In this document: positions 14,891 to 57,937 of the stretch, in pieces
Position numbering within the stretch: the stretch's first letter is position 1
How the letters are laid out: each line of letters opens with the position of its first letter
Source: an uncultured Alphaproteobacteria bacterium
Lineage (GTDB): Bacteria > Pseudomonadota > Alphaproteobacteria > CAAHEQ01 > UBA3637
Length of the DNA: 64,000 nt
Assembly: GCA_947627155.1 (NCBI GenBank)
Contig: CANQUX010000004.1
Location: forward strand, 22,889-86,888
Reading direction: 5' to 3'
The notes under the pieces: generated by a model
Told to the model about the DNA's origin: nothing
The model's database searches: none
Seen by the model: the letters and a program-made list of their open reading frames with translations, nothing else
Program-made: the position numbers and the translations under genes

Positions 14891-14905
14891 ATAAAGGCAA
14901 AAATA

Positions 14906-26209: not shown

Positions 26210-26358
26210 AAAAGGTATTTTTAAAACAAAAGAGCGCTCTTTTTCCGGGGCGCTTTTTTATTGTTTTTTTTAGCGAGTTAATTAAGGAAAGGCCACCGGA
26301 AATACCTCTTGTTTTCTTTATTGATGAATGTTGGAAGGAATAGAGTATTAACACTTTT

Positions 26359-26418
26359 CCCTCTATCGGCGGGTGTGACAGACGGCTTTATGTCGTCTGG
26401 TGCTATGGGTGAAAGGGG
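26359..26418. repeat. Solo copy of a ~60 bp MITE-like palindromic repeat (family with 'CCCTCTATCGGCGG ... CCGATAGGGG' termini).
   Basis: CCCTCTATCGGCGGGTGTGA, then the palindromic core CAGACGGCTTTATGTCGTCTG, then CTATGGGTGAAAGGGG. The same family occurs at 52481, 52704, 53063, 55101, 55191 and 55373. Confidence 0.55.
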
Positions 26419-26442
26419 AAAAGTAACGGTTTATTTTTAAGA

Positions 26443-26478
26443 GTGTTGCACAAATTAAACGTACGTTTTTTGCAACAC
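26443..26478. promoter_or_regulatory. Nested-palindrome operator-like site upstream of pilin-adhesin gene A.
   Basis: GTGTTGCA, then caaatt, then AAACGTACGTTT (a perfect 12 bp palindrome), then ttt, then TGCAACAC. The outer 8 bp arms are a perfect inverted repeat. The same architecture is found at 30073-30102 and, degenerate, at 53403-53435. Confidence 0.5.
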
Positions 26479-26590
26479 TTTTTTTTGATTTTTGTAAAAA
26501 AAATTTATTTTAAGTGGAAATGATTGATTTTTCGACTGTTTTTTAAGGGTGATTTTTTGCCTTTTGAAGGCAATTTTGACCCCTGAATCC

Positions 26591-26623
26591 GCGTTGCATT
26601 AAAGGTACGTTTAATTGTATACT
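26591..26623 (+). promoter_or_regulatory. Conserved promoter box of pilin-adhesin gene A.
   Basis: TTGCAT (26594-26599), then 17 nt, then GTATAC or TATACT. The spacer TAAAGGTACGTTTAATT is itself a near-palindrome. The 26-mer is identical to the one at 53549-53574. Confidence 0.45.
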
Positions 26624-26650
26624 GTTCGTATAATGAAAGGGAGTCGGAAA

Positions 26651-28012
26651 ATGACCATGCAATCAAAAAAACAAATTCAAAATCAATCCCAAAGTGGCCG
26701 TTCAATGGTTGAAATGCTGGGTGTGTTGGCGATTATTGCTATTCTGTCCATCGGCGGGATTGTCGGATTCCGATTGGCAATGAATTATTATCAAGCCAAT
26801 CAAATTGCCCATGAAATGAATATCATGCGCACCGATGCGCAGATAAAAATCGCCCAAGGCGCGGAGGAATTAACCCTCGGTGATCCGTATGACAGCGGAA
26901 ATATTCAATTTAACGGATATAAAACCGATTTTGATTGTCTTTATATGGAAACGGAAACGTCAGAACCCGAACTTGCTTCCTGTGCCGTTGCAAATGCCTA
27001 TTATATTGAAATGCAAAAAATTCCCGAAGGCATTTGCAAACCGCTGGCGAATTTAATTGATAAAATGGATAACGAAATTGCTTTTTATATCAATGGGAAA
27101 TCGGTTGATGCGGCAGAGGGAGAAAAAGGCGCTTGCCTTGGAGAAGAGAATATATTAACGGTGATCTTCGGTGCCGATTCGGATTCGGAGGCGATTAAGT
27201 GTAATGATGATCCCGATTGTCCCGATAACTTACCGATTTGTCATGAACATTTGTGTGTGGAGTGTGAAACGGATGAAGATTGCCCCTATAACACACAATA
27301 TTGTGAAGGAAATGCTTGTCAAACGTGTCCCGATAATCAAATATGGGGCGGTGCAGGAAAAGGTTGTGTGGAATGTTTAACATATGAAGATTGCACAGAT
27401 CCCGAAAAACCCAAATGTGAGCAAACTACAAACAAGTGCGTAGCGTGTCCGCCGAAATCGGTCTTTTATGAGGGCGAATGCTATGAATATGAATGTCGCA
27501 CCAACGAAGATTGCGCTGATAAAGGTGATGGCTATTATTGTCATGCCGAAGACGGAGATCGCACGTCTGACGGAGGCACGAACTATTCCGAATGGATAGA
27601 CAAACCGGGACAATATCTCGGCGGGAAATGCAAAAATGCCAGTCAAAGCAAAATGACGACGCCTGATGATGTTCCCTATGTGGTTTCTCAAGAAAAAATG
27701 GATTGGTGGTCTGCACAGCGTTTTTGTGAAGTACTTCATATGAGAACCGCCTCACGAAGAGATTTCGGTTGTGAAAATACAATAACTGATACTGATTGTG
27801 CTACTATAGATTGTTGTAAAAATGAAAAACTTGAATATCTTGATGAACATCATTTTCCGCGTGTCCCTGTTTGGTTAGAGTTAGTTACAGATCCGACTGA
27901 CAGATTATATGGACGAGCTATCAGTTTTGGTACAAAAAATAACACAAATATAGATTCGGATTTTCCGGCTTGGGGGGAAACAACGTCAAATTATGCTTTC
28001 TGTCAACCTTAA
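26651..28012 (+). CDS. Modular minor pilin/tip-adhesin candidate A. It consists of a class-III signal pilin domain, a Cys-rich stalk, and a lectin-like C-terminal domain.
   Basis: RBS AAAGGGAG 7 nt before the ATG at 26651. Leader 'MTMQSKKQIQNQSQSG|RSMVEMLGVLAIIAILSIGG' with Glu at +5. The middle region has repeated 'C..DEDCP' modules. The C-terminus, 'MDWWSAQRFCEVLHMRTASRRDFGC', is conserved with the paralog at 53605. Confidence 0.7.
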   Translation: MTMQSKKQIQNQSQSGRSMVEMLGVLAIIAILSIGGIVGFRLAMNYYQANQIAHEMNIMRTDAQIKIAQGAEELTLGDPYDSGNIQFNGYKTDFDCLYMETETSEPELASCAVANAYYIEMQKIPEGICKPLANLIDKMDNEIAFYINGKSVDAAEGEKGACLGEENILTVIFGADSDSEAIKCNDDPDCPDNLPICHEHLCVECETDEDCPYNTQYCEGNACQTCPDNQIWGGAGKGCVECLTYEDCTDPEKPKCEQTTNKCVACPPKSVFYEGECYEYECRTNEDCADKGDGYYCHAEDGDRTSDGGTNYSEWIDKPGQYLGGKCKNASQSKMTTPDDVPYVVSQEKMDWWSAQRFCEVLHMRTASRRDFGCENTITDTDCATIDCCKNEKLEYLDEHHFPRVPVWLELVTDPTDRLYGRAISFGTKNNTNIDSDFPAWGETTSNYAFCQP

Positions 28013-30072: not shown

Positions 30073-30102
30073 GTGTTGCAAAAAACGGACGTTTAATGCA
30101 AC
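30073..30102. promoter_or_regulatory. Nested-palindrome operator-like site upstream of the PilS-like pilin gene.
   Basis: GTGTTGCA, then aaa, then AAACGGACGTTT, then aa, then TGCAAC. It lies ~270 nt 5' of the start codon and has the same architecture as 26443-26478. Confidence 0.45.
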
Positions 30103-38681: not shown

Positions 38682-40028
38682 TTATGCCTTCGGTGCGGGG
38701 TTTGCGGGCATTGCCGGGGCACGCAATCCGGTAACAACTTGCTGTTTACTTTCTTGCTGTTCTTCTGGCGCCGGTTGTTGTTCCGTTTGTTGCGTCGCTT
38801 GTGATGTCGCTGGCTCTGATGTTGTTGCAGCTGCGGCTTTTTCCGTTGACTCGGCTTGTGTTTCATCAGTTGTTGCAATTTCTTCCGTGTCTTCGGATGA
38901 ATTTGTAATTTCACTTAAACTGGCGCGAATTCTTTCAAGCTCCTCATCAAAATCGGAAGTTTCTTCCTGAGCGGCTTCTTCCGTTGCGGCTGAATTTTCT
39001 TGTGTTTTTGCCTCTTCGGGTTGCGTTTTGGTCGATTCGCTCGGTGTTGCCTCAACGGCAGGCGCTTGTTTTGATTTTAACGGCACTTTTTCAACCGGAT
39101 GCGGTGCCGGATCGGTTTCGCCGTCTTTTAAATCAAAATACGCACTTAAAAACGAAGCCAAATCAGGCAATTCATCTTTGGGTTCGGCATTATTAAAGCC
39201 TAAAAGAAAAATGCCTTTGGAGCGAAAATATTCAACGGCTTGCTTGGTATTTAAAACGCGTCCGTCCGTAACCAATATGGCCGATAACACTTCGGAATTC
39301 GGTTCGGATTTGGCCAATGATTTTGAAGCGCCGATTAAATCTTGCGCCAAACGTTCCATAACGCCGCCCTCCGAATACCATCCGCCGGCCGTGACATCGT
39401 CGGTAAATTCAACCGACCAATTCACTTTCTTTTTGTTGACAATTTCAATTAAAACGGCGCGCGCATCGGTTGAAATGGCCATCGGTACCCGAAAGCCTTC
39501 CAGAAGAATGTGTTGAAAAATTTCCACCTTATATTTTCGCGCCAACGCCGCCGCTTGTTTAATCATTTGCGCTAAATTGGCATGACTCTTTTCACCGGAA
39601 ACCACTTCATCTTTTTGGTTGGGCAACCGCGGCGCCACATAACGATTGATTTGCATGGTGGAAGGCATTTTGCGCGGCATATGATAAATCGGCTTCGATT
39701 CTTTTAACTCGAATTTTGACTGAACTGCTTTTTTCATTTTTATTTTCGGCTTTAATTTTTTCCAATTCAAATGATAGAAAAAATGCCAGCCCCAAAGCCA
39801 AAGCGGAATCCAAGCAATCATCATGAAAAGTAATAATGTATCGGGCAGGGTGTTAATGCGCCATTTGTAATTGAAAAAATCGGTATATCGTTTTTCCCAA
39901 TCTTGCGCCGACAGGAAATTGAAATCTAAAAAATAGCCGATCAGCGGTAGAATAATGTAACCGTATATAATGGCCCACAAGAAGAATGTTAATATCAGTT
40001 TTATCGGTTGTGTTTTTGCTTTTGCCAT
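38682..40028 (-). CDS. Membrane-anchored hypothetical protein with an acidic Gln/Glu/Thr-rich C-terminal tail.
   Basis: Two N-terminal TM segments, a ~200 aa globular region, then 'EEAAQEETSDFDEELERIRASLSEITNSSEDTEE...'. No motif was identified. Confidence 0.45.
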   Translation of the reverse strand: MAKAKTQPIKLILTFFLWAIIYGYIILPLIGYFLDFNFLSAQDWEKRYTDFFNYKWRINTLPDTLLLFMMIAWIPLWLWGWHFFYHLNWKKLKPKIKMKKAVQSKFELKESKPIYHMPRKMPSTMQINRYVAPRLPNQKDEVVSGEKSHANLAQMIKQAAALARKYKVEIFQHILLEGFRVPMAISTDARAVLIEIVNKKKVNWSVEFTDDVTAGGWYSEGGVMERLAQDLIGASKSLAKSEPNSEVLSAILVTDGRVLNTKQAVEYFRSKGIFLLGFNNAEPKDELPDLASFLSAYFDLKDGETDPAPHPVEKVPLKSKQAPAVEATPSESTKTQPEEAKTQENSAATEEAAQEETSDFDEELERIRASLSEITNSSEDTEEIATTDETQAESTEKAAAATTSEPATSQATQQTEQQPAPEEQQESKQQVVTGLRAPAMPANPAPKA

Positions 40029-42187: not shown

Positions 42188-42823
42188 CTATATTTTTAAT
42201 CCTTTTAAAAATTTGGCAATTTTGGCGTTTTCCTCTTTGGCGGCCTCCGGCGTTAAAATGGAATTACCCGATGAATCAATTGTAATAATGGGTGAAAAAT
42301 AGGCCGGGTTGGAAATGAGTGTATCATAAGCTTTTTTGGCATCTTTTCGATACATAATAAAATAGCAGGACATGAGTTTATAGGCATCAATGTGGAAATG
42401 TTGCGCATTGATTTGATCACCGAACGTGCGCACCAGTTCTTTCCGCCGGTTTTCTTCCTGCCGGATTTCATTTAAAACCCGAGTTGTTTCCTTCAATAAT
42501 TCAACGTTACGTTTGTAAATGGTTTCTTCCTGTTGTTTGAGCTTATATTCCATATAATCCAAAATAATATCTTTCCAAAACGGTTGATCATTGTAGTTTT
42601 GCTGCACAATTCGCAAAATATCTTTGACCTCACAGGTATTAATATCTTTCACACTGCATAAATATGAAACAATGGCAGCAGATTCTTTTTCAGCCAACGC
42701 AACGGGAAAATTTTGAACGTTGTATTGCGTTATGTCAATGGTGAGCTGCGGCGCCGCCGATAAAACGCTGCGCTGTGCATAGAGCCGGGAATATAAGCCG
42801 TAAAGAATGTCATTTGCCGCCAT
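42188..42823 (-). CDS. Hypothetical protein.
   Basis: 211 aa, soluble, no motifs. It is co-oriented with the Gln-rich gene. Confidence 0.45.
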   Translation of the reverse strand: MAANDILYGLYSRLYAQRSVLSAAPQLTIDITQYNVQNFPVALAEKESAAIVSYLCSVKDINTCEVKDILRIVQQNYNDQPFWKDIILDYMEYKLKQQEETIYKRNVELLKETTRVLNEIRQEENRRKELVRTFGDQINAQHFHIDAYKLMSCYFIMYRKDAKKAYDTLISNPAYFSPIITIDSSGNSILTPEAAKEENAKIAKFLKGLKI

Positions 42824-42991
42824 GTTGTTTTTTCCTCCCTCGGATATTTTTTAAAAATTTTTTGACCGTTTCAACGGTTGTTTCTTTCAGTATAAGCATA
42901 AATTTTAAAAAATCTACTAAAAAGTGTTGTCTTTTTTAAAAATATGGTGTATTATGGTAGTATAAGGTTAATTATTTAAGGGGAAAAATCA

Positions 42992-44515
42992 ATGAAAAAA
43001 CGCCTTTTTCTTATCTTAACTGCTTGTGTAACAACACTTTTCTGCTTTATTCCTTTTTCGGTACAAGCAGCGGGTTGGCTAACTAAAATTGCCGGTTCTA
43101 TTTTCCAAGGAGTCATGAGTATATTGGGTTTTGGTGACTCATTGAACGGGTGGTGTTGGTTTTGTCCCATTATTGAGACTTTGTTGAAAGGGGCTAACAC
43201 AATTTCGTGCAACATCTATCTTAGAACCAAAGATGAACTTTTAATCTTGTTGGGTGTGGGTACGTTGTTTTTCATTGCCTTTAAAGTGGGCGCCATGGTT
43301 GTTAAATTGCAGGAAGTTGACTTAATGCAATTTATGGGCGAAATGTTTAAAGTTTTGGGTCGCGTTATTATCGCGGCAGCTATTTTATCTTCTGCGCCGT
43401 TTGTTGTTGACAATATTATTACGCCGTTTGTGGCTTATTCAACCGATTTTGCTTTAAAAGCGTTGGATGATAAAAATATTGATGTGAGCAATAAAATTTA
43501 TAAAAAAGTTAAAGGTATGCTCGATTATGACGATCAGGCACGCGAGCAAGTAGAGGCTGCCGCAACCGCTGTTGTTACCTGGGCCGGACAAGATAATTCC
43601 GATTCGTGTGTCTTTATTAACAGTGCGTTGATTCAAAGTATGAAAGCCATCGTTGCCAAAATCACCGCAAATTTGGTTATCGGCTTGGCTGTCGGGTTGG
43701 TGTTGATTGTGTTCAGCGGACTTTCTTCTTTGGTCTTCCCTGATTTGCAAAGCGTGTTATCCGGCGGTGTTATCTTTATGTCCTTCGCGGTCTTAATTGT
43801 GACGGTACCGTTTCAAATGATCAATTTGGCAATTCAATTGGTGTTCGTGCTGGCTTTGCTACCGTTCTGGGTGGTGTTGTGGGTTTTCCCCGTTACGGCG
43901 CAATATACCAAGAAAGCGTGGGATATGTTTGTTACAACCTGCTTGTCAATTATGATTTTCGGTATTTTGGCGGCTTTGGTGTTAAATCTGCTGAATTATA
44001 TGTTGCCGAACGGCAGTGATATTTTGGGCGATATGATTCCGGGCTATGATTTGCTTGCCGGCAAAAAAGCCAGTGCTTTCTCTTCAAGCACTTTGTTAAC
44101 GCTTGCTTTGGGCTTCTTGTGCAAAGAGCTTTTAAAATCGGCACCCGAATTGGCTTCCCGTATTACCAGTGTTTACGGTATTCAGGTTGGTGAGTCAATG
44201 GCTTCGTCCATTTCTGCCGCCATTGCGGGCGGTGCGGCAGCCGGCGGTACCATGTTCGGTTTGGCAAAAGCCTTTGGCGGCACGAGTCTTGAAACGGCTC
44301 AATCAGTCGGCAAGAAAGGCAGTGAATTGTTCAGGGGTACGTTTGGTCTGGAAGAGGGTAAGAGCTTGCAAGATAAATATTTGTTCGGTAGTTCAAGCAG
44401 CAGCTCCGATTCCGGATCCAAAGCCGCAAACAGAAACACTTATCAACAACCGCAGGCGGGTAGCTCAAATTCAACGGCGCAAGCATCGCAACAACAAACA
44501 ACATCGAAAAAGTGA
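42992..44515 (+). CDS. Polytopic membrane protein, paralog 1 of a tandem trio, with a CWFCP motif.
   Basis: Signal peptide. 'NGWCWFCPIIETL' before TM1. About 6 TM segments. The conserved 'LLPFWVVLWVFPVTAQYTKKAW' segment is also seen in paralog 3. The tail is Gly/Ser/Gln-rich. Confidence 0.6.
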   Translation: MKKRLFLILTACVTTLFCFIPFSVQAAGWLTKIAGSIFQGVMSILGFGDSLNGWCWFCPIIETLLKGANTISCNIYLRTKDELLILLGVGTLFFIAFKVGAMVVKLQEVDLMQFMGEMFKVLGRVIIAAAILSSAPFVVDNIITPFVAYSTDFALKALDDKNIDVSNKIYKKVKGMLDYDDQAREQVEAAATAVVTWAGQDNSDSCVFINSALIQSMKAIVAKITANLVIGLAVGLVLIVFSGLSSLVFPDLQSVLSGGVIFMSFAVLIVTVPFQMINLAIQLVFVLALLPFWVVLWVFPVTAQYTKKAWDMFVTTCLSIMIFGILAALVLNLLNYMLPNGSDILGDMIPGYDLLAGKKASAFSSSTLLTLALGFLCKELLKSAPELASRITSVYGIQVGESMASSISAAIAGGAAAGGTMFGLAKAFGGTSLETAQSVGKKGSELFRGTFGLEEGKSLQDKYLFGSSSSSSDSGSKAANRNTYQQPQAGSSNSTAQASQQQTTSKK

Positions 44516-44541
44516 TAACGCGATAAAAAAGAGGGCAGACG

Positions 44542-45876
44542 ATGATTTATTTGAACAAAATCCGTTGTTCTATCGAAAAACTTTCAAAAGGAATGTTTTT
44601 ATTGTCCCTTCTGTTTTTAGGTGGCTGTTCCACGAATATTGATTCGATGATGATTACCCAGCTGTTGCTGGCAAAGGAAGAAAATTGTTGGCCGTGTACC
44701 ATGTATAAAGTAATATGGGAGGGTATCGGAACGCTGGTTTCGAATATTTATCCCGAGTTGTGCGGTGACGCCCTGGTATTTTTGGGTATCGGTCTGTTAT
44801 TTTGGATTTGCTTTACGGTCGGGAAATTGGTTGTTTCAATAAAAGAGCCGAATTTAAAAGATTTTATCAGCAATATGGCAACGGTTCTTTTTAAAGCCAT
44901 GGTGATTGCCGTTATTTTATCGGCTCATACTTATACGATTTATTTCTTGGATTTGATTGTCAGGAATGTATTGGAAGCATTTATGGATTTAACCTTGAAT
45001 ATTATGTTTTCAAGTCAGACCATTGCCAAAAGTTTGGCAACGGGGCATGTGTATGAGGGTGATATTGTTTCTACCGCTTCCGGTGCGGGGAATATTCTTT
45101 TTACAAGCGAAATCGGTCATCAAATACAAGACTTGATTTATCGTATTTATGTCGGCTTTCACGGCGGTTTGAGTTTGGGTGTTAATTTAATTTTTCAAAC
45201 GGATCCGTCTTTGGTTGTAACGGGTTTGTTTGTAACAGCCATATTCTTTTATTTAATGCTGATTATTCCGTTGTTGTTTATTGAGGCTTTTGCTTTGTTG
45301 GGTGCGGTTATTGTGTTTTTCCCGCTGGCGTTGGTGCTGTATGTTTTCCCGTCAACAAAGGCTTATGTGGTTCCCATGTGGAAGGTGTTGTTTGTTTCAA
45401 TGGCACAAATTTTGGTGACCGGTGTTTATATGGCGGTGATGATTCATGTGGTGCAGGTGTTTTCGGATAATATTCTGTCGCCGAGTCGCATTTTGTCCGA
45501 TCCGCTTTTGATGATGAATTTGAAAAATATGAAAGATCAGTTTTTGGCATTTTGTGCGTTGGCATATATTATGTATCGTATGTCCAAAGATATTCCGAAC
45601 ATTTCTTCCAAACTGCTGGGTGACTTTAACCGATCCATGATGTTAGCCGGTGTTTCAAAAGCCATTAATTTAGGTAAAAATATCGGTATGGCGCTGGGTG
45701 GTGCCGCTTTGGCGGGAACCGGTGTTGCCGGAGGTGTGGGTCTTTCCATGATGATGAGTGCCGGCAAAGGTATGATGGAAAATACGCGAAATCCTGACGG
45801 ACAAGGCGGTTCTTCCGGATTAAGTACGGCGGAACAGGCGCAACAGGCACAACAGGCTGCTGCCAAACCGAAATAG
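44542..45876 (+). CDS. Polytopic membrane protein, paralog 2, with a CWPC motif.
   Basis: Lipobox-like 'LFLGGCS'. 'ENCWPCTMYKVIWEG' before TM1. 'FFPLALVLYVFPSTKAYVVPMWKV' segment. Gly/Ala/Gln-rich tail. Confidence 0.6.
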   Translation: MIYLNKIRCSIEKLSKGMFLLSLLFLGGCSTNIDSMMITQLLLAKEENCWPCTMYKVIWEGIGTLVSNIYPELCGDALVFLGIGLLFWICFTVGKLVVSIKEPNLKDFISNMATVLFKAMVIAVILSAHTYTIYFLDLIVRNVLEAFMDLTLNIMFSSQTIAKSLATGHVYEGDIVSTASGAGNILFTSEIGHQIQDLIYRIYVGFHGGLSLGVNLIFQTDPSLVVTGLFVTAIFFYLMLIIPLLFIEAFALLGAVIVFFPLALVLYVFPSTKAYVVPMWKVLFVSMAQILVTGVYMAVMIHVVQVFSDNILSPSRILSDPLLMMNLKNMKDQFLAFCALAYIMYRMSKDIPNISSKLLGDFNRSMMLAGVSKAINLGKNIGMALGGAALAGTGVAGGVGLSMMMSAGKGMMENTRNPDGQGGSSGLSTAEQAQQAQQAAAKPK

Positions 45877-45891
45877 GGAGAAGGAGAAAAT

Positions 45892-47952
45892 ATGAAACAC
45901 ATAATCCGACTTTTCTTCTTTATTTGCTTAATCAGTATGGGAGCTGTTCTTTCTCAATTGAATTTGGGTAACGGACAAGCGGTGTTTTGGGTTTGTTTCG
46001 GATTAACGCTTATTATTGGCGGCAGTGCTTGTTTTTACTTCATCCGTGTTAAAAATCATAAATTGTTATTGTTAATTGGTGTCGCTCTTTTTTCTGTGTG
46101 CTTATTTTCCGGTTCAATCGGTTACGCGGACAGTGTCAGGGTGAGTAATTTGGGACAGCAAGATAAGCTGAATGATTATAAAAGCTGGGTTTCTTCTTTT
46201 GAGAGCGCGTTAAAAAATGATAACACGTTGAAAGATTATGACGGCATTATGGACGGGACAAAAATTCCCGTTATTAACGGCGAGACTGCGCAGTTAGCTT
46301 CGCGGGCCAATTTGGCTTGTCAAATGCTTGAATACAGTGACAGCAATGAGGCCGGTTCTTATGAGGATACGTGTGAAAATGCCAAAAAATATACCGATGT
46401 TGTCGGAAAAGTTTATAACAGTATGGGATCGGGATGCAGTCCCATTGCCAGTATCGTTAAAAACATATTGAATAAAAATTCCTGTTGGCCATGTGATGTA
46501 ACGGCATTGGTTATTACCGCCATTCAGGAAGTTGCAAAAAGTTCACATGAGGTTATGACAAAGGCAGCGCTTAATTTAATGGGCGGATTATTTTTGCTGT
46601 GGTTAGCTTATGTAACATTGGCCTTTTTCGGTAAGTTCGGTTTTGCGCGTATTTCCGAATATTTAACAAACGTTTTAAATAAAGCGATTCTTGTTTTAAT
46701 TGTGGCAGCCTTTTTGCATTTACCGGTTCCGGAAATTTATAGTAAAACCGTTTCGCCGTTTGTGCAGTTTACGGCGGGATTGACACAGGTGTTTTCGCAA
46801 GAGGGTGAAGCTGCCGCGAAAAAAGCAGGTAAAACATTACACATATTGCAAAACATCATTACCGGCGGTACAAATCCGAAATGTAAATATTGTGATAATA
46901 TGAGCAGTTCAATGGCTGATGATTCGCCGTCATTTTTGGATCAAGGATCCGTGAACGGCTTATTGTGTACCGTTTGTACGGTTTATCATCAGGTTGCACC
47001 GATGATCAGTTTAGGGCAAGGGCTTTCCTGTTTTTCGGGAATGTCCCAAAAATCCAACAGTGACAGTAGTACAATCGGCGGTACTTCCTCATTCGGCGTT
47101 CCCCGAATAGGCGCTTTGCTGGCCGGAACAACCATTGTGTTGATTTTCTCGTTTTTGATGTTTATGATTGCCTATTATATCATTTCATCGGTGTTACAAT
47201 TAGGGTTTGTTATTATTTTATTGCCGTTTTGGATGGTTGCTTTTGTCTTTAAGGCCACACGGGAGTATACCAAAAATGCATGGATATTGGTTTTGCATGC
47301 AATGGGAACATTGATTTCGCTATCATTAAACGTTGCTCTGGTAATGGTCGGATTTAGTGAATTGTTATCCGGAAAAGTTGCTTTGGCACTCGGTTGGGGT
47401 ATTATTTCCGGCTCGCCGACAACTGTGATGGATGCTTTTACGGGGGGTGAAATTTTTCAATCTCAAAGTGAAGGAGATGGTTCATTTTTCTCGGGATTAA
47501 CGGATAAGCTCATTGATTTTGCCGTTAATCAGGCAATCGGTATGTCACCGACGCATGCTATTCTTTTGCTGATTGCATATGCTATTTTGTCCATTACGAT
47601 TGTCAGCAACACTTCGTTTTTTGTTGAACGTATTTTAGATGCCTGGATTAACAGAGAAGCCAACCCGCAAGGAGAAATGATGGCCGGTATTCAAGCTGCC
47701 GGTAAAGGGATTGGTTCCATGTCGCGGTTAGGTGCTGCCGGTGCAGGTGCTGCTGTCGGTGCGGTATCGGCAAGTTATGCTCGTATGCGTGATAAGCTGG
47801 ATAAGCAGCGAGCAGAGGCATCGAAATCGAGTAAAGGGCATACACCTAATACATATGGAAGTACGGCTGCCGAGATTATTAACCGTAATGTTTACGGATG
47901 GGAAGATAAGAAAACGTCGGATAAATCAAAAGAAAAATCAACAAAGAAATAA
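45892..47952 (+). CDS. Polytopic membrane protein, paralog 3, with a CWPC motif.
   Basis: RBS GGAGAAGGAG. 'KNSCWPCDVTALVITA'. 'ILLPFWMVAFVFKATREYTKNAW'. Additional 'CKYC' and 'CTVCTV' motifs. A long Ala/Gly/Ser/Lys tail. Confidence 0.6.
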   Translation: MKHIIRLFFFICLISMGAVLSQLNLGNGQAVFWVCFGLTLIIGGSACFYFIRVKNHKLLLLIGVALFSVCLFSGSIGYADSVRVSNLGQQDKLNDYKSWVSSFESALKNDNTLKDYDGIMDGTKIPVINGETAQLASRANLACQMLEYSDSNEAGSYEDTCENAKKYTDVVGKVYNSMGSGCSPIASIVKNILNKNSCWPCDVTALVITAIQEVAKSSHEVMTKAALNLMGGLFLLWLAYVTLAFFGKFGFARISEYLTNVLNKAILVLIVAAFLHLPVPEIYSKTVSPFVQFTAGLTQVFSQEGEAAAKKAGKTLHILQNIITGGTNPKCKYCDNMSSSMADDSPSFLDQGSVNGLLCTVCTVYHQVAPMISLGQGLSCFSGMSQKSNSDSSTIGGTSSFGVPRIGALLAGTTIVLIFSFLMFMIAYYIISSVLQLGFVIILLPFWMVAFVFKATREYTKNAWILVLHAMGTLISLSLNVALVMVGFSELLSGKVALALGWGIISGSPTTVMDAFTGGEIFQSQSEGDGSFFSGLTDKLIDFAVNQAIGMSPTHAILLLIAYAILSITIVSNTSFFVERILDAWINREANPQGEMMAGIQAAGKGIGSMSRLGAAGAGAAVGAVSASYARMRDKLDKQRAEASKSSKGHTPNTYGSTAAEIINRNVYGWEDKKTSDKSKEKSTKK

Positions 47953-50606: not shown

Positions 50607-51395
50607 ATGGCTATTGAAGAAATGAAAGCAAATAACAAGACCGATCAAACGGCTTTGGAAGAGAAAAAGCAAAAGCTTGAAAATATGGCGGAAAAGGAAA
50701 AGGCACGAAAACTTTCCGAAGTGTTTGATTTACCGACGGGACAAAACGGTTATTTAGATGATGTGTCTTTGGGCAAAGAAGAAAAGGCAACGGTTGATTG
50801 GGATCAGGTTTTGGATAAAGGTTTAGAGAGATTGAGAAAAATGAATGTGAAAAATCCCGATGATTTGATTTTCGCTTTATTTGAAATTATGTTGTTATCG
50901 CCGATTGATATGATGACAAATGCTTTGAACCAAATGCGTAAAAATATGAAAGAAAATCGTAAAAAAGAGGAATCAACACGTCAGTCATTTATTGAAAATA
51001 ACTTAAAAAGTAATAACTTAACAAAGGTGTCTTTGGCGGCAAAGCTTTCGCGTCAGGTGCAAAATTGGTTACTGAATGATCCGGCATATCAAAATTTACC
51101 GGCACAAGGCCCTTATACGAAATATCAAAAAGCAATTATGGAAAAGCAAAATTTTGCGGCGCGTTTACCGAAATCGGCGGACGGAAATATTGATTTTTCC
51201 CGGATGACATTTGCGCAAAAACGCCGATTTACCACTTATCTCACCTGTTTTGCCCGTTCAAACATGTGGCGGCAATATTTAAATGAAATGAGTGGTGTGC
51301 GGTTGCGGGAAAGCGAAGTGCAATCCATTAAAAATTCCGCCGCTCGTATGAAAATGGTGCGTTTGCCGAAAGAAGCGTTGGTGAATACGCGGTAA
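50607..51395 (+). CDS. Hypothetical protein, paralog of the conserved domain of the Gln-rich protein at 40041-42128.
   Basis: 'DLIFALFEIMLLSPIDMMTNALNQMRKNMKEN ... WLLNDPAYQNLPAQGPYTKYQKAIMEKQNFAARLPKSADGNIDFSRMTFAQKRRFTTYLTCFA' aligns collinearly with the 40041 product. RBS GGAGG. Confidence 0.6.
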   Translation: MAIEEMKANNKTDQTALEEKKQKLENMAEKEKARKLSEVFDLPTGQNGYLDDVSLGKEEKATVDWDQVLDKGLERLRKMNVKNPDDLIFALFEIMLLSPIDMMTNALNQMRKNMKENRKKEESTRQSFIENNLKSNNLTKVSLAAKLSRQVQNWLLNDPAYQNLPAQGPYTKYQKAIMEKQNFAARLPKSADGNIDFSRMTFAQKRRFTTYLTCFARSNMWRQYLNEMSGVRLRESEVQSIKNSAARMKMVRLPKEALVNTR

Positions 51396-52416: not shown

Positions 52417-52480
52417 ATCACTATTATCACATTTTTAATTTTTATTGCAATATATTTTTTGCTGTATATAAAAAAAGGGC

Positions 52481-53132
52481 GGGTGTGATGCACTGCGAAA
52501 AATAAGCCGATAGGGGGGGGAACGGACAGCAGGAAAGAGAAAGATTAACGATATTTCTTTCTCTTTTAATTTGCAGACGATAACTCTTTTCTCTTATTTC
52601 GGCGGGAAGTGCTATCCCGCATTTGTGGGATAGCGCGGTGTGCCGAAAATAATGTGATTCGGTAGGATATCACTCTATTATCTGTATATGGCACTTTCTT
52701 TTTCCTCTATCGGCGGATGTGGAGCGGCGCAATTGTGCCGCTCAACTATGGGTCGATAGAGGGAAAGGAACGGCAGGCTATCATTTTGGTAAAAGTGGTA
52801 AAGACAAGAGATATTTTTAGCCTCTTTGTTTATGAGTGGCACTTTCTCTTATTTTCGGCGAGAAGTGGCGGTGTGGGAAATGTGAATTGGCACGGTGGCA
52901 GAATAAAGACTGATTTTATTTTCTCCCCATTCGCAGGTGATAATTCTTCTTTCTTATTTTCGGCGGGAAGTGCTATCCCGCATTTGTGGGATAGCGCGGT
53001 GTGCCGAAAATAAGAAAAGAGGCGGTGAAAATGTGGCAATTTTAACGTTATTGCCGAATTTTCCCTCTATCGGCGGGTGTGATGCGCTGCTGAAAGGGGC
53101 GCTCCGCTATGGGCCGATAGGGGGAAAAATAA
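52481..53132. repeat. Left array of MITE-like palindromic repeats (three families) upstream of pilin-adhesin gene B.
   Basis: Family A, 'CTTATTTTCGGCGGGAAGTGCTATCCCGC...GGGATAGCGCGGTGTGCCGAAAATAAG', at 52593-52652 and 52953-53014 (identical), with a variant at 52846-52900. Family B, 'CCCTCTATCGGCGGGTGTGATGCGCTGC...GGGCCGATAGGGGG', at 53063-53125, with a partial copy at 52481-52521. Family C, 'CCTCTATCGGCGGATGTGGAGCGGCGCAATTGTGCCGCTC...CGATAGAGGG', at 52704-52763. Confidence 0.6.
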
Positions 53133-53402
53133 ATGATGCAAATTTTCTGCTTGACATTGGTATGAAAAGTTTTTATGCTGAAGGCAAGGCAAGTGATGTG
53201 TGCCCCGAGGCTTAAGAACCTCTTTAAAGGTATCCTTGAAAAAGGATAAATATTTGCGCCTTTTTTTGATATTGTCAAAAAAAGGAAACGGTTACAAGAC
53301 CGGAAGGTAGTAAAATAAACCTTTTGGTCAATATACTGCGCTATTTCCTTTAAGTAGTTCTTAACTTCCGGTCGCCTCTCATCAAGGCGATTTTTTTTGA
53401 AT

Positions 53403-53435
53403 ATGCATCAAAAAAACGTACGATTTTTGCAACAC
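53403..53435. promoter_or_regulatory. Operator-like site upstream of pilin-adhesin gene B (a degenerate copy of the nested palindrome).
   Basis: ATGCAT, then caaa, then AAACGTACGATTT, then tt, then TGCAACAC. The right arm and core are conserved with 26443-26478; the left arm is degenerate. Confidence 0.4.
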
Positions 53436-53551
53436 TTTTTTTTGATTTTTTCAAAAAAAATTTATTTGGAGGTAATTTTAATGCAATATCAACAGGTTAT
53501 AAAAAGTTTGTTTCAACACTTTTTAAGGGTAATTTTACCCCCGAATCCGCG

Positions 53552-53580
53552 TTGCATTAAAGGTACGTTTAATTTATGCT
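53552..53580 (+). promoter_or_regulatory. Conserved promoter box of pilin-adhesin gene B.
   Basis: TTGCAT (53552-53557), then the 17 nt spacer TAAAGGTACGTTTAATT, then TATGCT. The 26-mer GCGTTGCATTAAAGGTACGTTTAATT is identical to 26591-26616. Confidence 0.45.
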
Positions 53581-53604
53581 ATTTGCATTGAAAGGAAGCG
53601 AAAA

Positions 53605-55023
53605 ATGAGCAATAAAACAAGAAAAAAACAAATCGAAAATCAAACTCAACAAGGCCGTTCAATGGTTGAAATGCTCGGGGTGCTGGCTATTATCGGTGTT
53701 ATTTCAATCGGTGGCATTGCCGGTTACAGAATGGCCATGAATCGATATCAAGCGAATCAAATTGCGAATGAAATCAATCTCATGCGTACCGATGCGAAAA
53801 TGAAAGTTGCGCGCGGCGTGGAATTATTGCTCGGTGAGCCGTATGACGGTGACGACGGGCATTTGAATTTTAATGCAAATTATGGCGTTGCGGTTAAATT
53901 TGAGGAAATAGGAACAGACACGCCGGGTGAAACGGAAAAGGGCTATTCGTTTACGTTATCAAACATTCCTGAAGGGGTGTGTAAACCGTTGGTAGCCTTG
54001 TTAGATAACATGGACGACACGGCTGATATAAAAATAGGTGACAAAAGTTATTATGATGAGCAGGATAATTTCTGCGGTGAAACGAATGAAGTAATGGTCG
54101 CCTTCTCAACCAAAGATATAGGCGGGGCGAGCAGCGGAAGCGGAGAGGAGCCGGAGGTAACAGACCCGGATCAAGGCGATGAGCCGCATGAATGTGATCC
54201 GGAGACATGCCCGGGAGAATGCAACGAAGAAGGAGTATGTGAATGTCCGGAAGGAAGCCATTTAAAAGGCGATGAGTGCGTGAGTTGTTCGGGCGGAAAG
54301 GTATGGGACGAAGGTAGTAATGATTGCGTTTGTCCGGCGGGAGCAGAAAAATCCGGAGAAGATGGCGAAGAATGTGCGTGCAGTACCGAGAAACCGCATT
54401 GGAATGGTACCGAATGTACGGCGTGTCCGAACGGCAGCACTTGGGATAGTACAACCGGCGAATGCAAATGTGAAGGTAATAAAGTCTGGAAAGAATCAGT
54501 GAGTGGAGAAGATAAATGTGTAGAAATTGTCGGAGAATGCGAGAGCAATGCCGATTGCGGGCCGGGAGAGTATTGTTACATATATTATGGATATGATTGT
54601 CATGACGGCCAGGAATTTCAATCCGGCAAATTTGGTGCTGGAAGATACGATTATACGAGTGAATGCCGGAATGCGCGCAAAGATGCAGTAATAGGAGAAA
54701 AGACTGGTTTTGCATTAGGTTGGCCGGAAGAAACGAAAAGTAATTCTAAATATATGGATTGGTGGAGCGCCGGGCGATTCTGTGAGGCATTAGGAAGGAA
54801 ACAAGCAACGCGGGCAAGCATCGGGTGTGGCGAGGTGTCGTCCGGAGGCACATGTGACAGTCAGATAAGAAAGGATTTGTACGAGGATTTTGGTAGCGGT
54901 TATGTTTGGTTGTACGATATGTGCAATGATTCTTCCTGCGCCGCGTACTACGTTCTCCTCTATAGCGGTGGCGTCTACAACTACAATCGCTACACCGGCA
55001 ACACCTACGCCTTATGTGAGTGA
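53605..55023 (+). CDS. Modular minor pilin/tip-adhesin candidate B (paralog of 26651-28012).
   Basis: Leader 'MSNKTRKKQIENQTQQG|RSMVEMLGVLAIIGVISIGGIAGY'. The N-terminal ~65 aa are ~75% identical to A. The shared pilin core is 'IPEGVCKPLVALLDNMD'. The Cys-rich stalk is divergent ('CDPETCPGECNEEGVCECPEGSH...'). The conserved C-terminus is 'MDWWSAGRFCEALGRKQATRASIGC'. Confidence 0.7.
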   Translation: MSNKTRKKQIENQTQQGRSMVEMLGVLAIIGVISIGGIAGYRMAMNRYQANQIANEINLMRTDAKMKVARGVELLLGEPYDGDDGHLNFNANYGVAVKFEEIGTDTPGETEKGYSFTLSNIPEGVCKPLVALLDNMDDTADIKIGDKSYYDEQDNFCGETNEVMVAFSTKDIGGASSGSGEEPEVTDPDQGDEPHECDPETCPGECNEEGVCECPEGSHLKGDECVSCSGGKVWDEGSNDCVCPAGAEKSGEDGEECACSTEKPHWNGTECTACPNGSTWDSTTGECKCEGNKVWKESVSGEDKCVEIVGECESNADCGPGEYCYIYYGYDCHDGQEFQSGKFGAGRYDYTSECRNARKDAVIGEKTGFALGWPEETKSNSKYMDWWSAGRFCEALGRKQATRASIGCGEVSSGGTCDSQIRKDLYEDFGSGYVWLYDMCNDSSCAAYYVLLYSGGVYNYNRYTGNTYALCE

Positions 55024-55092
55024 GGCCAGCCCGCCGGCCGTCCTTTTCCCGATGCCCCGCCTTTACGGCTTCCATTCAGCGGGGCACCTCTC

Positions 55093-55530
55093 TCATTTTT
55101 CCCCCTATCGGCCCATAGCGATGCGCTACTTTTCGCAGCGCATCACACCCGCCGATAGGGGGAAAAAAGAGTGCCGCATTACTTCTTGCACCCGCCGATA
55201 GAGGGGAAATATCGTCAGCAACATTTAAAAAAAGCATAGTTTTCCTGCCATTTTCTTATTTTCGGCACACCGCGCTATCCCACGTTTCACGGGATAGCAC
55301 TTCCCGCCGAAAATAAGAGAAAGTGTCAAAACAACATGTCTTTTATCATTTTACTCCACCGAATTGTCTGATTTTCGGCACATAGCGGAGCGGCACAGTT
55401 GCGCCGCTCCACATCCGCCGAGAATGAGAGACAGAGACACAATTTCCGTTCTCTGCCTTTCTTAATTTTCGGCACACCGCGTCGGCGCATATTCCACGCG
55501 CCGCCACTTCCCGCCGAAAATTAAGAAAGA
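55093..55530. repeat. Right array of the same MITE-like repeat families, in inverted orientation relative to the left array.
   Basis: Family B inverted at 55101-55163, plus a partial copy at 55191-55209. Family A inverted at 55256-55318 (the central loop differs), with a variant at 55461-55525. Family C inverted at 55373-55424 ('GGAGCGGCACAGTTGCGCCGCTCCACATCCGCCGAG'). Confidence 0.6.
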
Positions 55531-55552
55531 AAGCGAATACAATCGCCGCTCC

Positions 55553-55755
55553 AAAAAATAAATGTCGGCCGAAAATAAATGAAGAGCCGAATATATTACC
55601 TTTAAAAAATAAATGTCGGCCGAAAATAAATGAAAAGCCGAATATGCTTCCTCAAAACAAATTTTTAATTGCCGAATTTGTGGTTGTGCGGAAATCGGAT
55701 CTTCAAACAAATTTTTAATTGCCGAATTTGTTGCTGCGCGGAAATCCGACCGGCG
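55553..55755. repeat. Two adjacent ~50 bp tandem duplications; the second duplicates the 3' end of parC.
   Basis: Unit X: AAAAAATAAATGTCGGCCGAAAATAAATGAA(G/A)AGCCGAATAT, twice (55553-55602 and 55604-55653). Unit Y: AAACAAATTTTTAATTGCCGAATTTGT..GCGGAAATC.GA, twice (55656-55705 and 55706-55755). The second Y copy contains the parC stop codon and last codons (..KFGN*). The first Y copy would encode ..HKFGN*. Confidence 0.6.
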
Positions 55756-57937
55756 GAATTTTACCCACCGTTGCCCGCTTGGCAAGCCAAAGCTCAATGT
55801 TGCGCTCAATACGCGTGCCGTTGCCCGAGGGGAAAGATAATCCGTCGGCCAAATTAAAGAATTTCACATCGGAAAGCTTGGCCTCCTGATAGCGTTGCAA
55901 AATCACGCCGTTGGAGCGCGCCATAACGGGAATTTCTTCCGTTTTAAACACAATCATTTTGCGATTGGTGCCGATAACGGCAATATGATCACCCGTAACG
56001 GGTTTGCAAAGGATGGCTTTATCGTTATCGGACAAATTGAGAATAATTTTACCGGCACGCGTTTGCGCAATCACATCGGACGCGGCAACAATAAAGCCTT
56101 TACCGTTTTGCGAGGCCACCAACAGTTTTTGAGCGGCATCGTAAGGCAACAGCGCGACAATGTCGGCTTCTTGGGCAATATCGACCGACAGACGCAACGG
56201 CTCGCCAAACCCGCGCCCGCCCGCTATGTTATTGCCTAACAGCGTGTAAAACCGTCCGTTTGTGGTGAAAATTAAAATATTATCGGTGGTATAAGTTTTT
56301 AACACGGCTTTAAGCGAATCGCCCTCTTTAAACTTTAAGTCGGAAGAAATGTCAACATGCCCTTTCACGGCACGAATCCACCCTTGCTTGGATAACACAA
56401 TCGTAATCGGTTCGCGCTCAATCATGGCTTCAATGGAAATTTTCACTTCTTCGGGCGCATCGGTCACTTGTGTTCGACGCGCTCCGAGCGCTGTTTTTTG
56501 CCCGAACGCTTTTTGAATGACTTTAATTTCTTCGGCAAGCTTTTTAACCCGTAAAGCGGTATTATTTACAAGCTTTTCCAATTCCTGCTTTTCATTTGAC
56601 AGCGTTTCATATTCGTTTTTCAGTTGCGCTTCTTCCAGCTTTCTCAAACTTCTTAACCGCATATTCAAAACAGCTTCCGCTTGAATATCGCTTAATGAAA
56701 ATTCTTGCATGAGCCGCGGTTTCGGTTCATCTTCATTGCGAATAATTTCAATCACGCGATCTAAATTTAAATAAGTGATTAAAAAGCCTTGCAAAAGCTC
56801 CATTCGGTGCCTGATTTTGTCCAGCCGATATTGCGAGCGACGCACCAACACAATATCCCGATGTTTTAAGTAGGCAACCAACACTTCTTTTAAACTCATA
56901 ACGCGCGGGGTATGATCGGCATCAAGCACATTCATGTTGAGATTGAAGTTAATTTGCAAATCGGTGTTTTTGAACAAATGTTCCATCAGCTGTTCGGGCA
57001 GAACGGAGCGGGATTTCGGCTCTAACACCAAACGAACGACATCGGACGATTCGTCACGAATATCAGCCAACAGCGGCAGCTTTTTTTCGGACAGCAGCTT
57101 TGCAATGCGCATCACCAAATCTGATTTTTGAATGCCGTAGGGAATTTCGGTAACAACAATTTGATATTGCCCGTGCGATAACTCTTCTTTTTCCCATTTC
57201 GCACGCACTTTCATGGCGCCGCGCCCCTCTTGATAAACTTTAATAATGTTTTGACGACTTTCCGCCAAAATACCGCCCGTGGGAAAATCGGGTCCTTGAA
57301 TATATTGAATTAAATCGGCCGTTGAGGCTTCGGGATATTTTAATAAATGCAACAGCGCATCGCAAATTTCGCCCACGTTATGCGGCGGAATGTTGGTGGC
57401 CATACCCACGGCAATGCCCGATGAGCCGTTCGCCAATAAATTCGGAAAGGCGGCCGGCATAACCGACGGTTCTTCTTCTTCACCGTCATACGTTTTATCA
57501 AAATCAACGGCGTTATCCTCCAAGCCGTCCATCAGTGCAACGGCAACCGCCGTTAAGCGCGCTTCCGTATAACGCATGGCGGCGGCTTTATCGCCGTCAA
57601 TGTTGCCGAAATTGCCTTGCCCGTCCACCAACGGATAACGTACGGCAAAATCTTGCGCCAAACGCACCATGGCTTCGTAAACGGACGTATCACCGTGCGG
57701 GTGATATTTACCGATAACATCTCCCACCACGCGCGCGCATTTTTTAAAGCCCGAAACCGGATCCAGTTTCAGTTGGCGCATGGCATATAATAATCGGCGA
57801 TGCACCGGTTTTAAGCCGTCACGCACATCGGGAAGCGAGCGCGCCACAATGGTTGACATGGCATAAGCCAAATAGCGTTCCGAAAGCGCATCGGCCAGTT
57901 TTGTTTCACGGATATTTTCAATGTTTTCCATACTCAT
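55715..57937 (-). CDS. parC: DNA topoisomerase IV subunit A (type IIA topoisomerase A subunit; ParC preferred over GyrA because it is 740 aa).
   Basis: '[19 protein letters not shown]'. The active-site region '[10 protein letters not shown]' contains the catalytic Tyr. There is no long GyrA-type C-terminal extension. Confidence 0.8.

Follow-up and report, generated by a model that had tools for sequence, protein, structure and literature searches.

Repeat arrays that track one adhesin family are a recognised, poorly understood route to antigenic or adhesive diversity, and the main precedent for such arrays is provided by NIMEs, the intergenic mosaic elements of Neisseria, the mechanism of which is still unproven. 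NIME arrays flank surface-protein genes and pilS, vary between strains, and have been proposed as recombinase sites or as substrates of recombination, homologous or site-specific, through which the genes beside them diversify (PMC1797815). Here we describe arrays of this general kind from a 64,000-nt stretch of the genome of an uncultured alphaproteobacterium (contig CANQUX010000004.1, positions 22,889 to 86,888), which we call the window and which is 100% identical to contigs of the European Nucleotide Archive (ENA) assembly ERZ27249395. In the window, copies of a previously undescribed hairpin-forming repeat, arranged in two inverted arrays, bracket the gene for pilin-B, a protein resembling minor pilins and adhesins. 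We put at about even the chance that these arrays are recombination-prone, structure-constrained, lineage-specific repeats that occupy the flanks of a variable adhesin family and are functional analogues of the NIME/dRS3 arrays.

The likeness to the neisserial arrays lies in architecture and placement. Both consist of short inverted repeats with conserved ends, a variable centre and short spacers (PMC1797815), and both lie beside genes for surface proteins or pilins (pilS in Neisseria), sometimes as pairs of arrays around a gene, with a repeat number that differs by strain. The differences concern the elements themselves and their host. The dRS3 consensus, ATTCCC-N8-GGGAAT (20 bp), is not matched here and the sequences are unrelated, so that the repeat is an analogue of NIMEs and not a member of that group. 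The repeats described here are 75-100-nt bulged hairpins with covarying stems and are polarised towards the gene, and their host is a gut alphaproteobacterium. The repeat is an independent system, and a structurally much better defined one than the NIMEs.

The element, ~70-100 nt in length, is an imperfect palindrome that forms a bulged hairpin and consists of a pyrimidine-rich arm ending in TCGGC, an asymmetric internal loop, an apical stem-loop and a purine-rich arm starting with GCCGA. The internal loop is conserved in sequence, GGRWGTG on the left and CGCKRTGK on the right (TCGGC-GGRWGTG ... CGCKRTGK-GCCGA), and the consensus of the element reads TCGGCGGRWGTG...CGCKRTGKGCCGA. RNAalifold returned a 13-bp outer stem, a 5x5 loop and a 12-bp apical stem, with compensatory double changes in 15 of the 25 pairs. 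Among 29 copies, 94% of the cells are paired (93% in the outer stem of 13 bp or longer), and 162 cells show double changes compared to 58.7+-6.8 after shuffling, a number that none of the 500 shuffles reached; the covariation score is 0.551 as against 0.198 for the shuffled alignments and 0.11-0.18 for slid-partner controls. The sequence of the apical stem is essentially free, with the pairing kept, and the most conserved part of the element is the internal loop rather than the termini. Two G.U pairs are conserved at fixed positions. When folded as DNA, the elements are very stable (z-scores of -8 to -11), and when folded as RNA, the sense strand is more stable than the antisense strand by ~10 kcal/mol in 27 of the 28 copies. 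The combination of a conserved asymmetric loop, conserved G.U pairs and a free apical stem suggests that a protein reads one folded strand, for which the conserved loop would be the probable recognition feature. Recognition of one folded strand is also the logic of attC sites, of repetitive extragenic palindromes (REPs) with their REP-associated tyrosine transposases (RAYTs), and of IS200/IS605 ends.

Three separate families of repeats (A, B and C) had been distinguished in the initial annotation; these are variants of one element, among which arms and apical hairpins reassort, and we retain the letters for the variants only. One and the same apical stem is found with differing types of arms, and some elements have two unlike arms. 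The termini are of the CCCTATCGGC or the TTATTTTCGGC type, and a constant GGCA(C/G) or the palindromic GTGCC lies just outside the arms of many copies. A sigma-54 promoter in the GGCAC motif beside the arms was considered and rejected by eye since there is no GC at -12, and a CRISPR-like interpretation was rejected because the repeats are non-identical and the 'spacers' are decayed repeats.

A search of the window with the pattern TCGGCGRRN{1,2}GTGN{10,40}TGKGYCGA gave eight matches compared to 0.00 expected from shuffled sequences, four on the plus strand (52599, 52710, 52960 and 53070) and four on the minus strand (55108, 55262, 55375 and 55469). A covariance model (CM), built from 14 aligned copies from the window and its relatives, detected nine full copies in the 64 kb and no others (E-values of 1e-13 to 1e-21): four plus-strand copies to the left of pilin-B, four minus-strand copies to its right, and one upstream of pilin-A, a second adhesin gene of the window. 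The copies score 70-96 bits on their own strand (63 bits for the solo copy) and 25-47 bits on the other strand, a gap wide enough to make the assignment of opposite orientations to the two arms robust. In a global alignment of the left arm with the reverse complement of the right arm, the elements follow in the same order and the spacers cannot be aligned; the arms are colinear mirror images of each other (B,C,(B'),B,A / gene / A,(A'),B,C,B). Identity between the arms is 90% over 72 nt for the A-A pair (the element at 53048-53139 and the complementary 55095-55166), 100% over 33 nt and 29 nt for the B-B pairs, and 89% over 47 nt for the C-C pair. The left array is itself a tandem duplication of ~360 bp, in which 52569-52766 is ~75% identical to 52929-53127 and the repeat spacings are 361 and 360. 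The initial annotation is borne out as regards the arrays on both sides of pilin-B, the opposite directions in which they run, and the solo copy ahead of pilin-A. The positions given there for the two arrays stand too, except that the right array goes on beyond 55530, as core-less arm remnants, to about 55654. Further to the right, a 50-bp tandem duplication extends into parC, a ParC/GyrA-like gene (55715-57937, minus strand), where it covers the last ~11 codons, and the C-terminal tail of the protein is therefore repeat-derived.

The related DNA that was searched with the model amounts to ~128 kb, much of it fetched via adhesin homologues; a 2-kb contig was searched apart. Two strains carry counterparts of the left array (L121 and L122), L121 being 98.4% identical to the window across the flanking hydrolase gene. 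L131 is a locus from the same sample, 21 kb in total, that extends 10 kb to each side of a paralogue 43% identical to pilin-B, and L132 is the adhesin locus of L131 in a second sample. L123 is the locus of a 73%-identical pilin-B homologue beside secDF, whereas L124, L125 and L134 encode homologues that are 61-66% identical and lie each in another genomic context.

In the window, all nine copies adjoin two of the three pilin-like genes, and over the ~128 kb, elements are present in 8 of the 14 intergenic regions flanking adhesin genes as against 0 of the 42 other regions (Fisher p=2e-6; regions longer than 20 nt were counted). The initial annotation had named a lack of enrichment at pilin loci as evidence that would count against it, and the enrichment is pronounced. 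The bracket recurs at L131, with five plus-strand copies upstream of the gene, six downstream (+,-,-,+,-,-) and none elsewhere in the 21 kb. At L123, a single plus-strand element (226-317), which looks like an orthologous counterpart of the solo copy of the window, lies 49 nt ahead of the promoter box and switch described below, and the gene is followed by the same minus-strand A, partial A and C elements as in the window, with homologous spacers. At L124, L125 and L134, a minus-strand element lies directly past the gene, and in every pilin-B-type homologue examined the first element after the gene is on the minus strand. Relative to the gene, 11 of the 11 upstream copies are in the plus orientation, and the downstream copies comprise ~14 minus and 3 plus; the gene-ward polarity is a strong tendency but not a law.

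Table 1. Repeat elements, switches, genes and associated features of the pilin-B and pilin-A loci (window coordinates unless a locus is named)
Feature	Position	Strand	Evidence	Particulars
Partial degenerate element, CCCTATCGGC-terminus type	52478..52520	+	repeat pairs	left core and right arm kept, right half of apical hairpin gone; kept in L121 and L122
Full element, B type	52578..52668	+	CM 69.8 bits, E 7e-15	TTATTTCGGC arm; core GGGAAGTG...CGCGGTGT; apical stem CTATCCCG/GGGATAG
Full element, C type	52688..52778	+	CM 76.9 bits	CTCTATCGGC arms; apical stem GAGCGGCGC/GCCGCTC; 89% complementary to 55375-55421
Degenerate B-type element, right half decayed	52836..52910	+	repeat pairs	homologous degenerate copy at L131 9059-9143 (22.9 bits)
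Full element, B type	52938..53029	+	CM 85.6 bits	with 53048-53139, second copy of the ~360-bp duplication of the left array
'Spacer' derived from a C-type element by decay and internal deletion	53019..53058	+		40 nt; L131 has a full element in the homologous position (L131:9327-9417), with which it aligns
Full element, A type, innermost of left arm	53048..53139	+	CM 83.6 bits	CCCTCTATCGGC arms; apical stem ATGCGCTGC
sRNA-like transcription unit	53151..53400	+		between innermost left element and switch
Candidate invertible promoter switch, pilin-B	53405..53579			paired inverted sites around 141-bp segment 53422-53562; left site GCATCAAAAAA-ACGTAC(53416-53421)-GATTTTTGCAAC; right site GTTGCATTAAAG-GTACGT(53563-53568)-TTAATTTATGC
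Pilin-B gene	53605..55023	+		472-aa PilV-like minor pilin/adhesin
Hairpin CCCCGC...GCGGGG	55055..55084	+		directly past the stop codon, adjoins first downstream element; kept in L123 and L134
Full element, A type, innermost of right arm	55086..55177	-	CM 96.2 bits	homologous minus-strand copies at L123 2042-2133, L125 1617-1708, L124 11483-11573, L134 1786-1877
Partial A-type element	55189..55210	-	repeat pairs	left arm and core start only; kept at the same place in L123, L125 and L134
Full element, B type	55240..55332	-	CM 84.9 bits	
Full element, C-type core with B-like chimeric arms	55353..55443	-	CM 80.5 bits	flank identical to that of L131:9327
Full element, B type	55447..55539	-	CM 83.0 bits	apical stem GCGGCGCG/GCGCCGA
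Two tandem duplications	55553..55749			51 bp x2 (55553-55654), then 50 bp x2 (55655-55749); each 51-bp unit with core-less B-type arm remnant (TTATTTTCGGC/CGACA, - strand); TTATTTTCGGC matches at 55568 and 55619
Solo element upstream of pilin-A switch	26344..26434	+	CM 63 bits	left arm CCCTCTATCGGC, right arm decayed; apical stem ACAGACGG/CGTCTG; CCCTATCGGC-type terminus; core ends 47 nt ahead of central hexamer of pilin-A operator
Pilin-A switch	26448-26622			ACGTAC 26459-26464, GTACGT 26605-26610, 140-bp segment
Pilin-A locus	26448..28012	+		switch sites plus adhesin gene 26651-28012
L131 and L132 switches	L131:9801-9975, L132:39-213			

Comparison of the arrays across loci and strains indicates how they change. 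The right array of the window is homologous to the downstream array of L123, spacers included, and two differences between them can be read at the level of single elements. L123 lacks one B element with its spacer (113 nt; 55240-55332 in the window), and this indel starts and stops at the same position of the TCTYATTYTCGGC arm in two neighbouring elements; in the second case, the conserved GCCGA is the point at which a C core has become joined to the flank of the B element that follows. In L121, one element core (52578-52668) has been deleted via TCGG microhomology, and another element is missing together with its spacer. Furthermore, the apical stem-loop of the B element at L121:1-74 is wholly replaced in comparison with that of its orthologue at 52938-53029 of the window (CCGGCTT...AAGCCGG vs CTATCCC...GGGATAG; the stem-loops compared are CTATCCCGCATTTGTGGGATAG and CCGGCTTGTGGAACGTAAGCCGG), with the surrounding sequence more than 90% identical; the joint change of the two arms of the apical stem implies that the replacement was templated and did not arise by point mutation. 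A 236-nt stretch of the right array (55367-55579, minus strand, downstream) is the inverted homologue of a part of the upstream, plus-strand array of L131, and between the two arms of the window the elements are kept at 89-100% identity while their spacers have diverged beyond alignment. Neither a target-site duplication nor a clean insertion of a single element was found among the resolvable differences between the window and L121, L123 and L131. All of these differences between the arrays are of the kind that results from unequal, non-allelic or gene-conversion-type recombination among the repeats.

The interior of the bracket had been taken to contain the operator, the promoter and the gene of pilin-B and nothing else. 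It holds, in addition, a small RNA (sRNA)-like transcription unit, and the 'operator' bounds a segment that is inverted at a paralogous locus. The sRNA-like unit comprises a promoter, TTGACA-17-TATGCT (53151-53179), a structured body of ~215 nt and an intrinsic terminator (53370-53392 and a T run), and the promoter and terminator are laid out in the same way in L131. Copies that are ~77% identical are present at two other pilin-B-type loci (L131:9543-9786 and L124:~9556-9792). Among the three copies, 12 pairs show compensatory changes, and the covarying helices include AAGAAC/GTTCTT, GCTAAC/GTTAGC and GGAAAC/GTTTCC. The unit yields a full-length match to the Rfam family sRNA-Xcc1 that remains below the gathering score of 53 (37.9 bits in the window, 39.8 bits in L124).

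The operator itself is made up of two inverted sites built like recombinase core sites (11-6-11-type), and each combines an outer arm, GCAT(C/A)AAAWWAA, with a central hexamer and with an inner arm that ends with GCAAC or starts with GTTGC. Such a pair lies upstream of every adhesin gene examined (about a dozen loci), with the sites 140-141 bp apart (139 bp in one copy, L137). The segment enclosed by the sites at L131 and L132 is 90.1% identical to that of pilin-B when inverted and 55.3% when compared directly, both flanks are direct, and the inner arms of the sites have exchanged places relative to pilin-B. An inverted segment between direct flanks, with swapped inner arms, has the signature expected of a site-specific inversion with the crossover in the hexamer. 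Each locus shows one orientation across samples: P0007 in four samples, always in the orientation of the window, and P0008 and P0038 in two samples each. The designation as a programmed inverton is accordingly one that we infer from the paralogues, the two states being seen between loci only. The only sigma-70-like hexamers within the segment are weak; their direction in the window is away from the gene, whereas in L131 they point to it. By eye, the gene-proximal junction re-forms a TTGCA(T/A)-17-TATGCT promoter in either state, and an A/T-rich block similar to an UP element adjoins the rebuilt promoter in the L131 state only; there is a weak indication that the orientation of the window is OFF or low. 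The 151-aa pilin-like gene of the window has the same promoter box, with a degenerate gene-proximal site (GTGAATTAAAGGGACGT) and the hexamers ACGTCC/GGACGT, and its switch may be locked.

Like fimS, the Mpi-controlled promoters and the invertons of gut bacteria, these sites are inverted repeats that bound a short, putatively promoter-bearing segment directly upstream of a gene for a surface structure, and, as with the Mpi-controlled promoters of Bacteroides, the same repeat is reused at many loci. Invertons are common near the adhesion genes of gut bacteria (cf. PMC11892184 and PMC11602134). The present sites differ from the described invertible promoters in that both orientations are seen only between paralogous loci, in their 11-6-11-type cores with the hexamer ACGTAC, and in that no recombinase was found in the window. 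A multi-locus inverton regulon is likely; to our knowledge, no such regulon has been described in this lineage, nor for type IVb pili of Alphaproteobacteria. On/off control of each adhesin would most likely come from this separate 153-bp invertible promoter segment inside the bracket, and the sole DNA inversion supported by the data is that of the promoter segment, not that of the 2-kb gene cassette. The ends of short-read contigs repeatedly fall in or close to the promoter box or switch (the end of L120 and the starts of L123, L125, L126, L132 and L133), and the contigs from the sample of the window itself end at 53409 (L120) and 54178, in the multicopy promoter and N-terminal region. Contig breaks at the promoter box are to be expected of a multicopy sequence, and mixed orientation may also contribute.

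If the arrays are functional analogues of NIMEs, they would act as dynamic blocks of dispersed homology flanking surface-protein genes, with hairpins that are possibly recognised by a protein. The arrays would grow, shrink and hybridise through recombination between neighbouring and non-allelic copies, and whole adhesin genes with their flanks could thereby be duplicated, relocated, exchanged and occasionally flipped; the arrays would promote the exchange or diversification of adhesin cassettes. When a stretch between an upstream and a downstream element is inverted, all elements, whether within the stretch or outside it, retain their polarity with respect to the gene; the mirror-image layout is therefore self-perpetuating once established; it is compatible with occasional flips of the cassette, but is itself no switch. 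Several observations weigh against this interpretation. There is no direct sign that adhesin genes have been exchanged through the arrays, and the homologues in other genomic contexts may be old paralogues; no recombinase was found among the open reading frames (ORFs) of the window or among the genes called at the other loci, nor was a binding protein identified. Covariation within a DNA palindrome is no proof of a selected structure. The consistent orientation could be explained by descent from one duplicated module, and the rule of orientation is not absolute, given that the array between two tandem adhesin genes in L125 reads -,+,-. The 'exclusive' association with adhesin genes rests on the ~128 kb, much of which was reached through adhesin homologues, and L095, a contig (CANQKV010000043.1) of a metagenome-assembled genome of an 'uncultured Alphaproteobacteria' from the rabbit gut, carries two true elements after an ABC-transporter gene at the contig end. 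These two elements (L095:2515-2935), one of the A type and one of the B type and both on the plus strand, follow a gene for an oligopeptide-type ABC-transporter ATPase, the adjacent gene being off the contig; L095 is the one possible exception to adhesin-only placement. The covariance model and the defined sites allow array-driven cassette exchange to be put to the test.

Among other explanations, it appears improbable that the elements are non-autonomous and similar to miniature inverted-repeat transposable elements (MITEs) or to REPINs, the hairpin-forming doublets of REPs, with a transposase or RAYT encoded elsewhere and a preference for AT-rich adhesin flanks, the arrays recording repeated insertion, as the initial annotation had also envisaged. 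The terminal inverted arms, the size of ~75-100 nt, the several sub-families and the presence of copies in at least two related species (the second being that of L095) would fit such an origin, and the constant GGCA(C/G) found outside many of the copies might serve as a motif for targeting or cleavage. REPs, the bacterial interspersed mosaic elements (BIMEs) and REPINs are likewise extragenic, imperfect palindromes that form stable hairpins, are clustered and non-coding and, in the case of REPINs, are also ~100 nt long; the Correia elements (CREE) of Neisseria, and MITEs generally, share with the present repeat the terminal inverted repeats, the small size, the sub-families and the intergenic location near promoters. 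However, MITEs and Correia elements come with target-site duplications and clean presence/absence polymorphism, neither of which was found here: no variable target-site duplication accompanies the elements, and the resolvable presence/absence differences are bounded inside neighbouring elements, at homologous positions, or by microhomology, and not at element ends; a footprint of repeated insertion is not supported. REPs are scattered over the whole genome in hundreds of copies, chiefly at the 3' ends of many unrelated operons, and BIME clusters alternate in orientation, whereas in the ~128 kb searched the copies described here are confined to the flanks of one gene family, with none in the 42 non-adhesin intergenic regions, and form co-oriented arrays. 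Conservation peaks in the internal loop instead of the termini. A RAYT gene, the hallmark of the REP/REPIN system, was not seen in the DNA searched, and no transposase, RAYT or recombinase domain was detected in the window or among the called genes of L123, L124, L131 and L133. The claim that the window has no ORF for a recombinase or transposase holds for its ~48 large ORFs, which contain no such Pfam domain (no Y1_Tnp, no Phage_integrase); the small ORFs within the arrays, compared with NCBIfam, match none of its families. A smaller probability still attaches to the elements being strand-specific RNA hairpins that process, pause or stabilise transcripts, insulating phase-variable adhesin genes or protecting the 3' ends of mRNAs in the manner of REPs. 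The better folding of the sense strand, which is owing to the conserved G.U pairs, agrees with this, as do the sense strands pointing into the gene from both sides and the minus-strand element that comes right after the stop-codon hairpin in every pilin-B-type homologue. The asymmetry contributed by the G.U pairs, however, comes mainly from two positions shared by descent, and the downstream copies would be antisense within the adhesin mRNA itself. No U-tract follows the hairpin on either strand, so that the elements are not intrinsic terminators; T-runs precede and A-runs follow the hairpins on both strands, and a terminator scan misses them. No Rfam family matches the elements above noise, the sub-threshold matches being models of miRNA precursors, i.e., generic hairpins.

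Ranking marginally lower again is the possibility that the elements are folded single-strand recombination sites, akin to attC or to attP of the CTX phage, at which a dedicated recombinase captures, swaps and flips whole adhesin cassettes. As in the attC sites of integrons and of clusters of attC sites lacking integron-integrases (CALIN), structure is conserved over sequence, with two stems, an unpaired centre, a variable terminal structure and one strand that folds better; the 13-bp stem, the 5x5 unpaired loop with conserved bases and the 12-bp stem of free sequence are what such a site would look like, as is the strand asymmetry of folding. Chimeric elements are joined at the conserved CGGC/GCCGA boundaries, an apical structure has been swapped wholesale between near-identical strains, and the interior of the bracket gives a sub-threshold match to an sRNA family known first from integron cassettes (cf. 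PMC2996969). If so, each unit of array, sRNA-like unit, inverton, adhesin gene and array would be a mobile or exchangeable cassette, and a gut alphaproteobacterium would trade whole, individually phase-variable pilus-tip adhesins in the manner of an integron or a shufflon. The chimeras are, however, explained equally well by unequal homologous recombination. The arms, YYYTATCGGC or TTATTTTCGGC, have no AAC/GTT core, and the R''/R' boxes of attC (RYYYAAC ... GTTRRRY) are lacking. The arrays are inverted around the gene and do not form a direct array of ORF cassettes, the 'cassettes' between sites being only 35-45 nt of decayed repeat, and neither IntI nor another integrase is encoded among the ORFs of the window. 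Finally, we consider it very improbable that the segment 53133-55092 is a programmed invertible cassette that flips by recombination between the arms. Such an event is physically possible, as initially proposed, given the inverted homologous arms with perfect matches of 33 and 29 nt and a 90% match over 72 nt, and it is consistent with array segments being common to loci in opposite roles, the same stretch lying downstream of pilin-B on the minus strand and upstream of its paralogue on the plus strand. As a switch it would have no effect, since promoter, leader and gene flip together and expression remains unchanged; no other promoter or partner is available from either flanking gene, the upstream/downstream relation of gene to elements is the same in all adhesin homologues seen, and no contig in the other orientation was found, although the short-read contigs, which break at the multicopy promoter box and not at the arms, are uninformative on the orientation of the cassette. 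Moreover, a smaller and better-defined inversion exists inside the bracket.

The genes within the brackets belong to a large adhesin family, for which 373 homologues of pilin-B were collected, several of them on single long contigs. The prepilin leader of pilin-B is long and ends in ...QQG before RSMVEMLGVLAIIG, in which Glu occupies position +5. Comparison of pilin-B with Pfam, NCBIfam and the PDB sequences gave no match. An AlphaFold (AF2) model derived from 46 homologues (pLDDT 77.9) has a 50-residue N-terminal helix (residues 21-70) and a beta-sheet head, after which come Cys-rich hairpin repeats and a C-terminal domain that is confidently modelled. In Foldseek searches, the N-terminal domain matched CofA (9iuf_A, prob 1.00), TcpA (8uhf_E, 0.98) and PilS of S. 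Typhi (0.89), and the C-terminal domain matched C-type-lectin-like folds, including the C-type lectin 1iod_B (prob 0.97). On the strength of these features, pilin-B-type proteins are best described as PilV-like minor pilin-adhesins of the type IVb class. The window also encodes type IVb machinery of the R64 thin-pilus/Tcp-like kind at 1242-9708 (TcpQ, secretin, PAP_PilO, T2SSE ATPase and T2SSF), and the 450-470-aa 'pilin-adhesins' are therefore identified as PilV-like tip adhesins. The organism has an extensive set of C-type-lectin-like tip adhesins, and each of them would seem to be governed by an invertible promoter of its own. A parallel is found in the shufflon of R64 (Rci/sfx), in which a type IVb thin-pilus-like system likewise has a PilV-type tip adhesin varied by DNA rearrangement. 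The R64 shufflon, however, swaps the C-terminal exons of a single pilV by means of 19-bp sfx sites and the adjacent rci, whereas the present system has many complete adhesin genes with their own promoter switches and with repeats outside the genes, and no rci is encoded in the window. The 151-aa pilin-like gene (29367-29822, minus strand; region 29367-30102) is probably that of the major pilin, and its 5' leader contains an arm-like remnant, TTATTTTCCCTATCGAGAG (29880-29900).

Outside the loci discussed above, one scan of genome contigs with the element pattern identified L095 as the sole true relative among the reference-genome matches; the others were rejected as chance matches in high-GC genomes, the pattern being too degenerate. 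A scan of JGI metagenomes with a pattern specific for the B type gave zero matches, and four matches to the general element pattern (20 bits or less, GC-rich) were dismissed as due to chance; the lineage appears to be absent from the JGI metagenome collection. Neither the element nor the switch site was found in IMG/VR, and look-ups of the exact protein sequences of pilin-B, pilin-A, P0001 and P0005 gave no record.

Several other genes of the window are worth mentioning. Large ORFs (211-686 aa) at 36137-37774, 38682-40028, 42188-47952 and 50607-51395 have no Pfam match at E<=0.001. A 695-aa ORF (40041-42128, minus strand), also without a Pfam match, contains 21-nt (and 72-nt) tandem repeats (GTTGTTGCGGCTGCGG...) at 40350-40670 and 41420-41675, and the length of the repetitive protein possibly varies. 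Three consecutive ankyrin-repeat proteins and one Sel1-repeat protein are encoded at 14186-16578 and 22989-24047, and the presence of these eukaryote-like repeat proteins is suggestive of a host-associated lifestyle.

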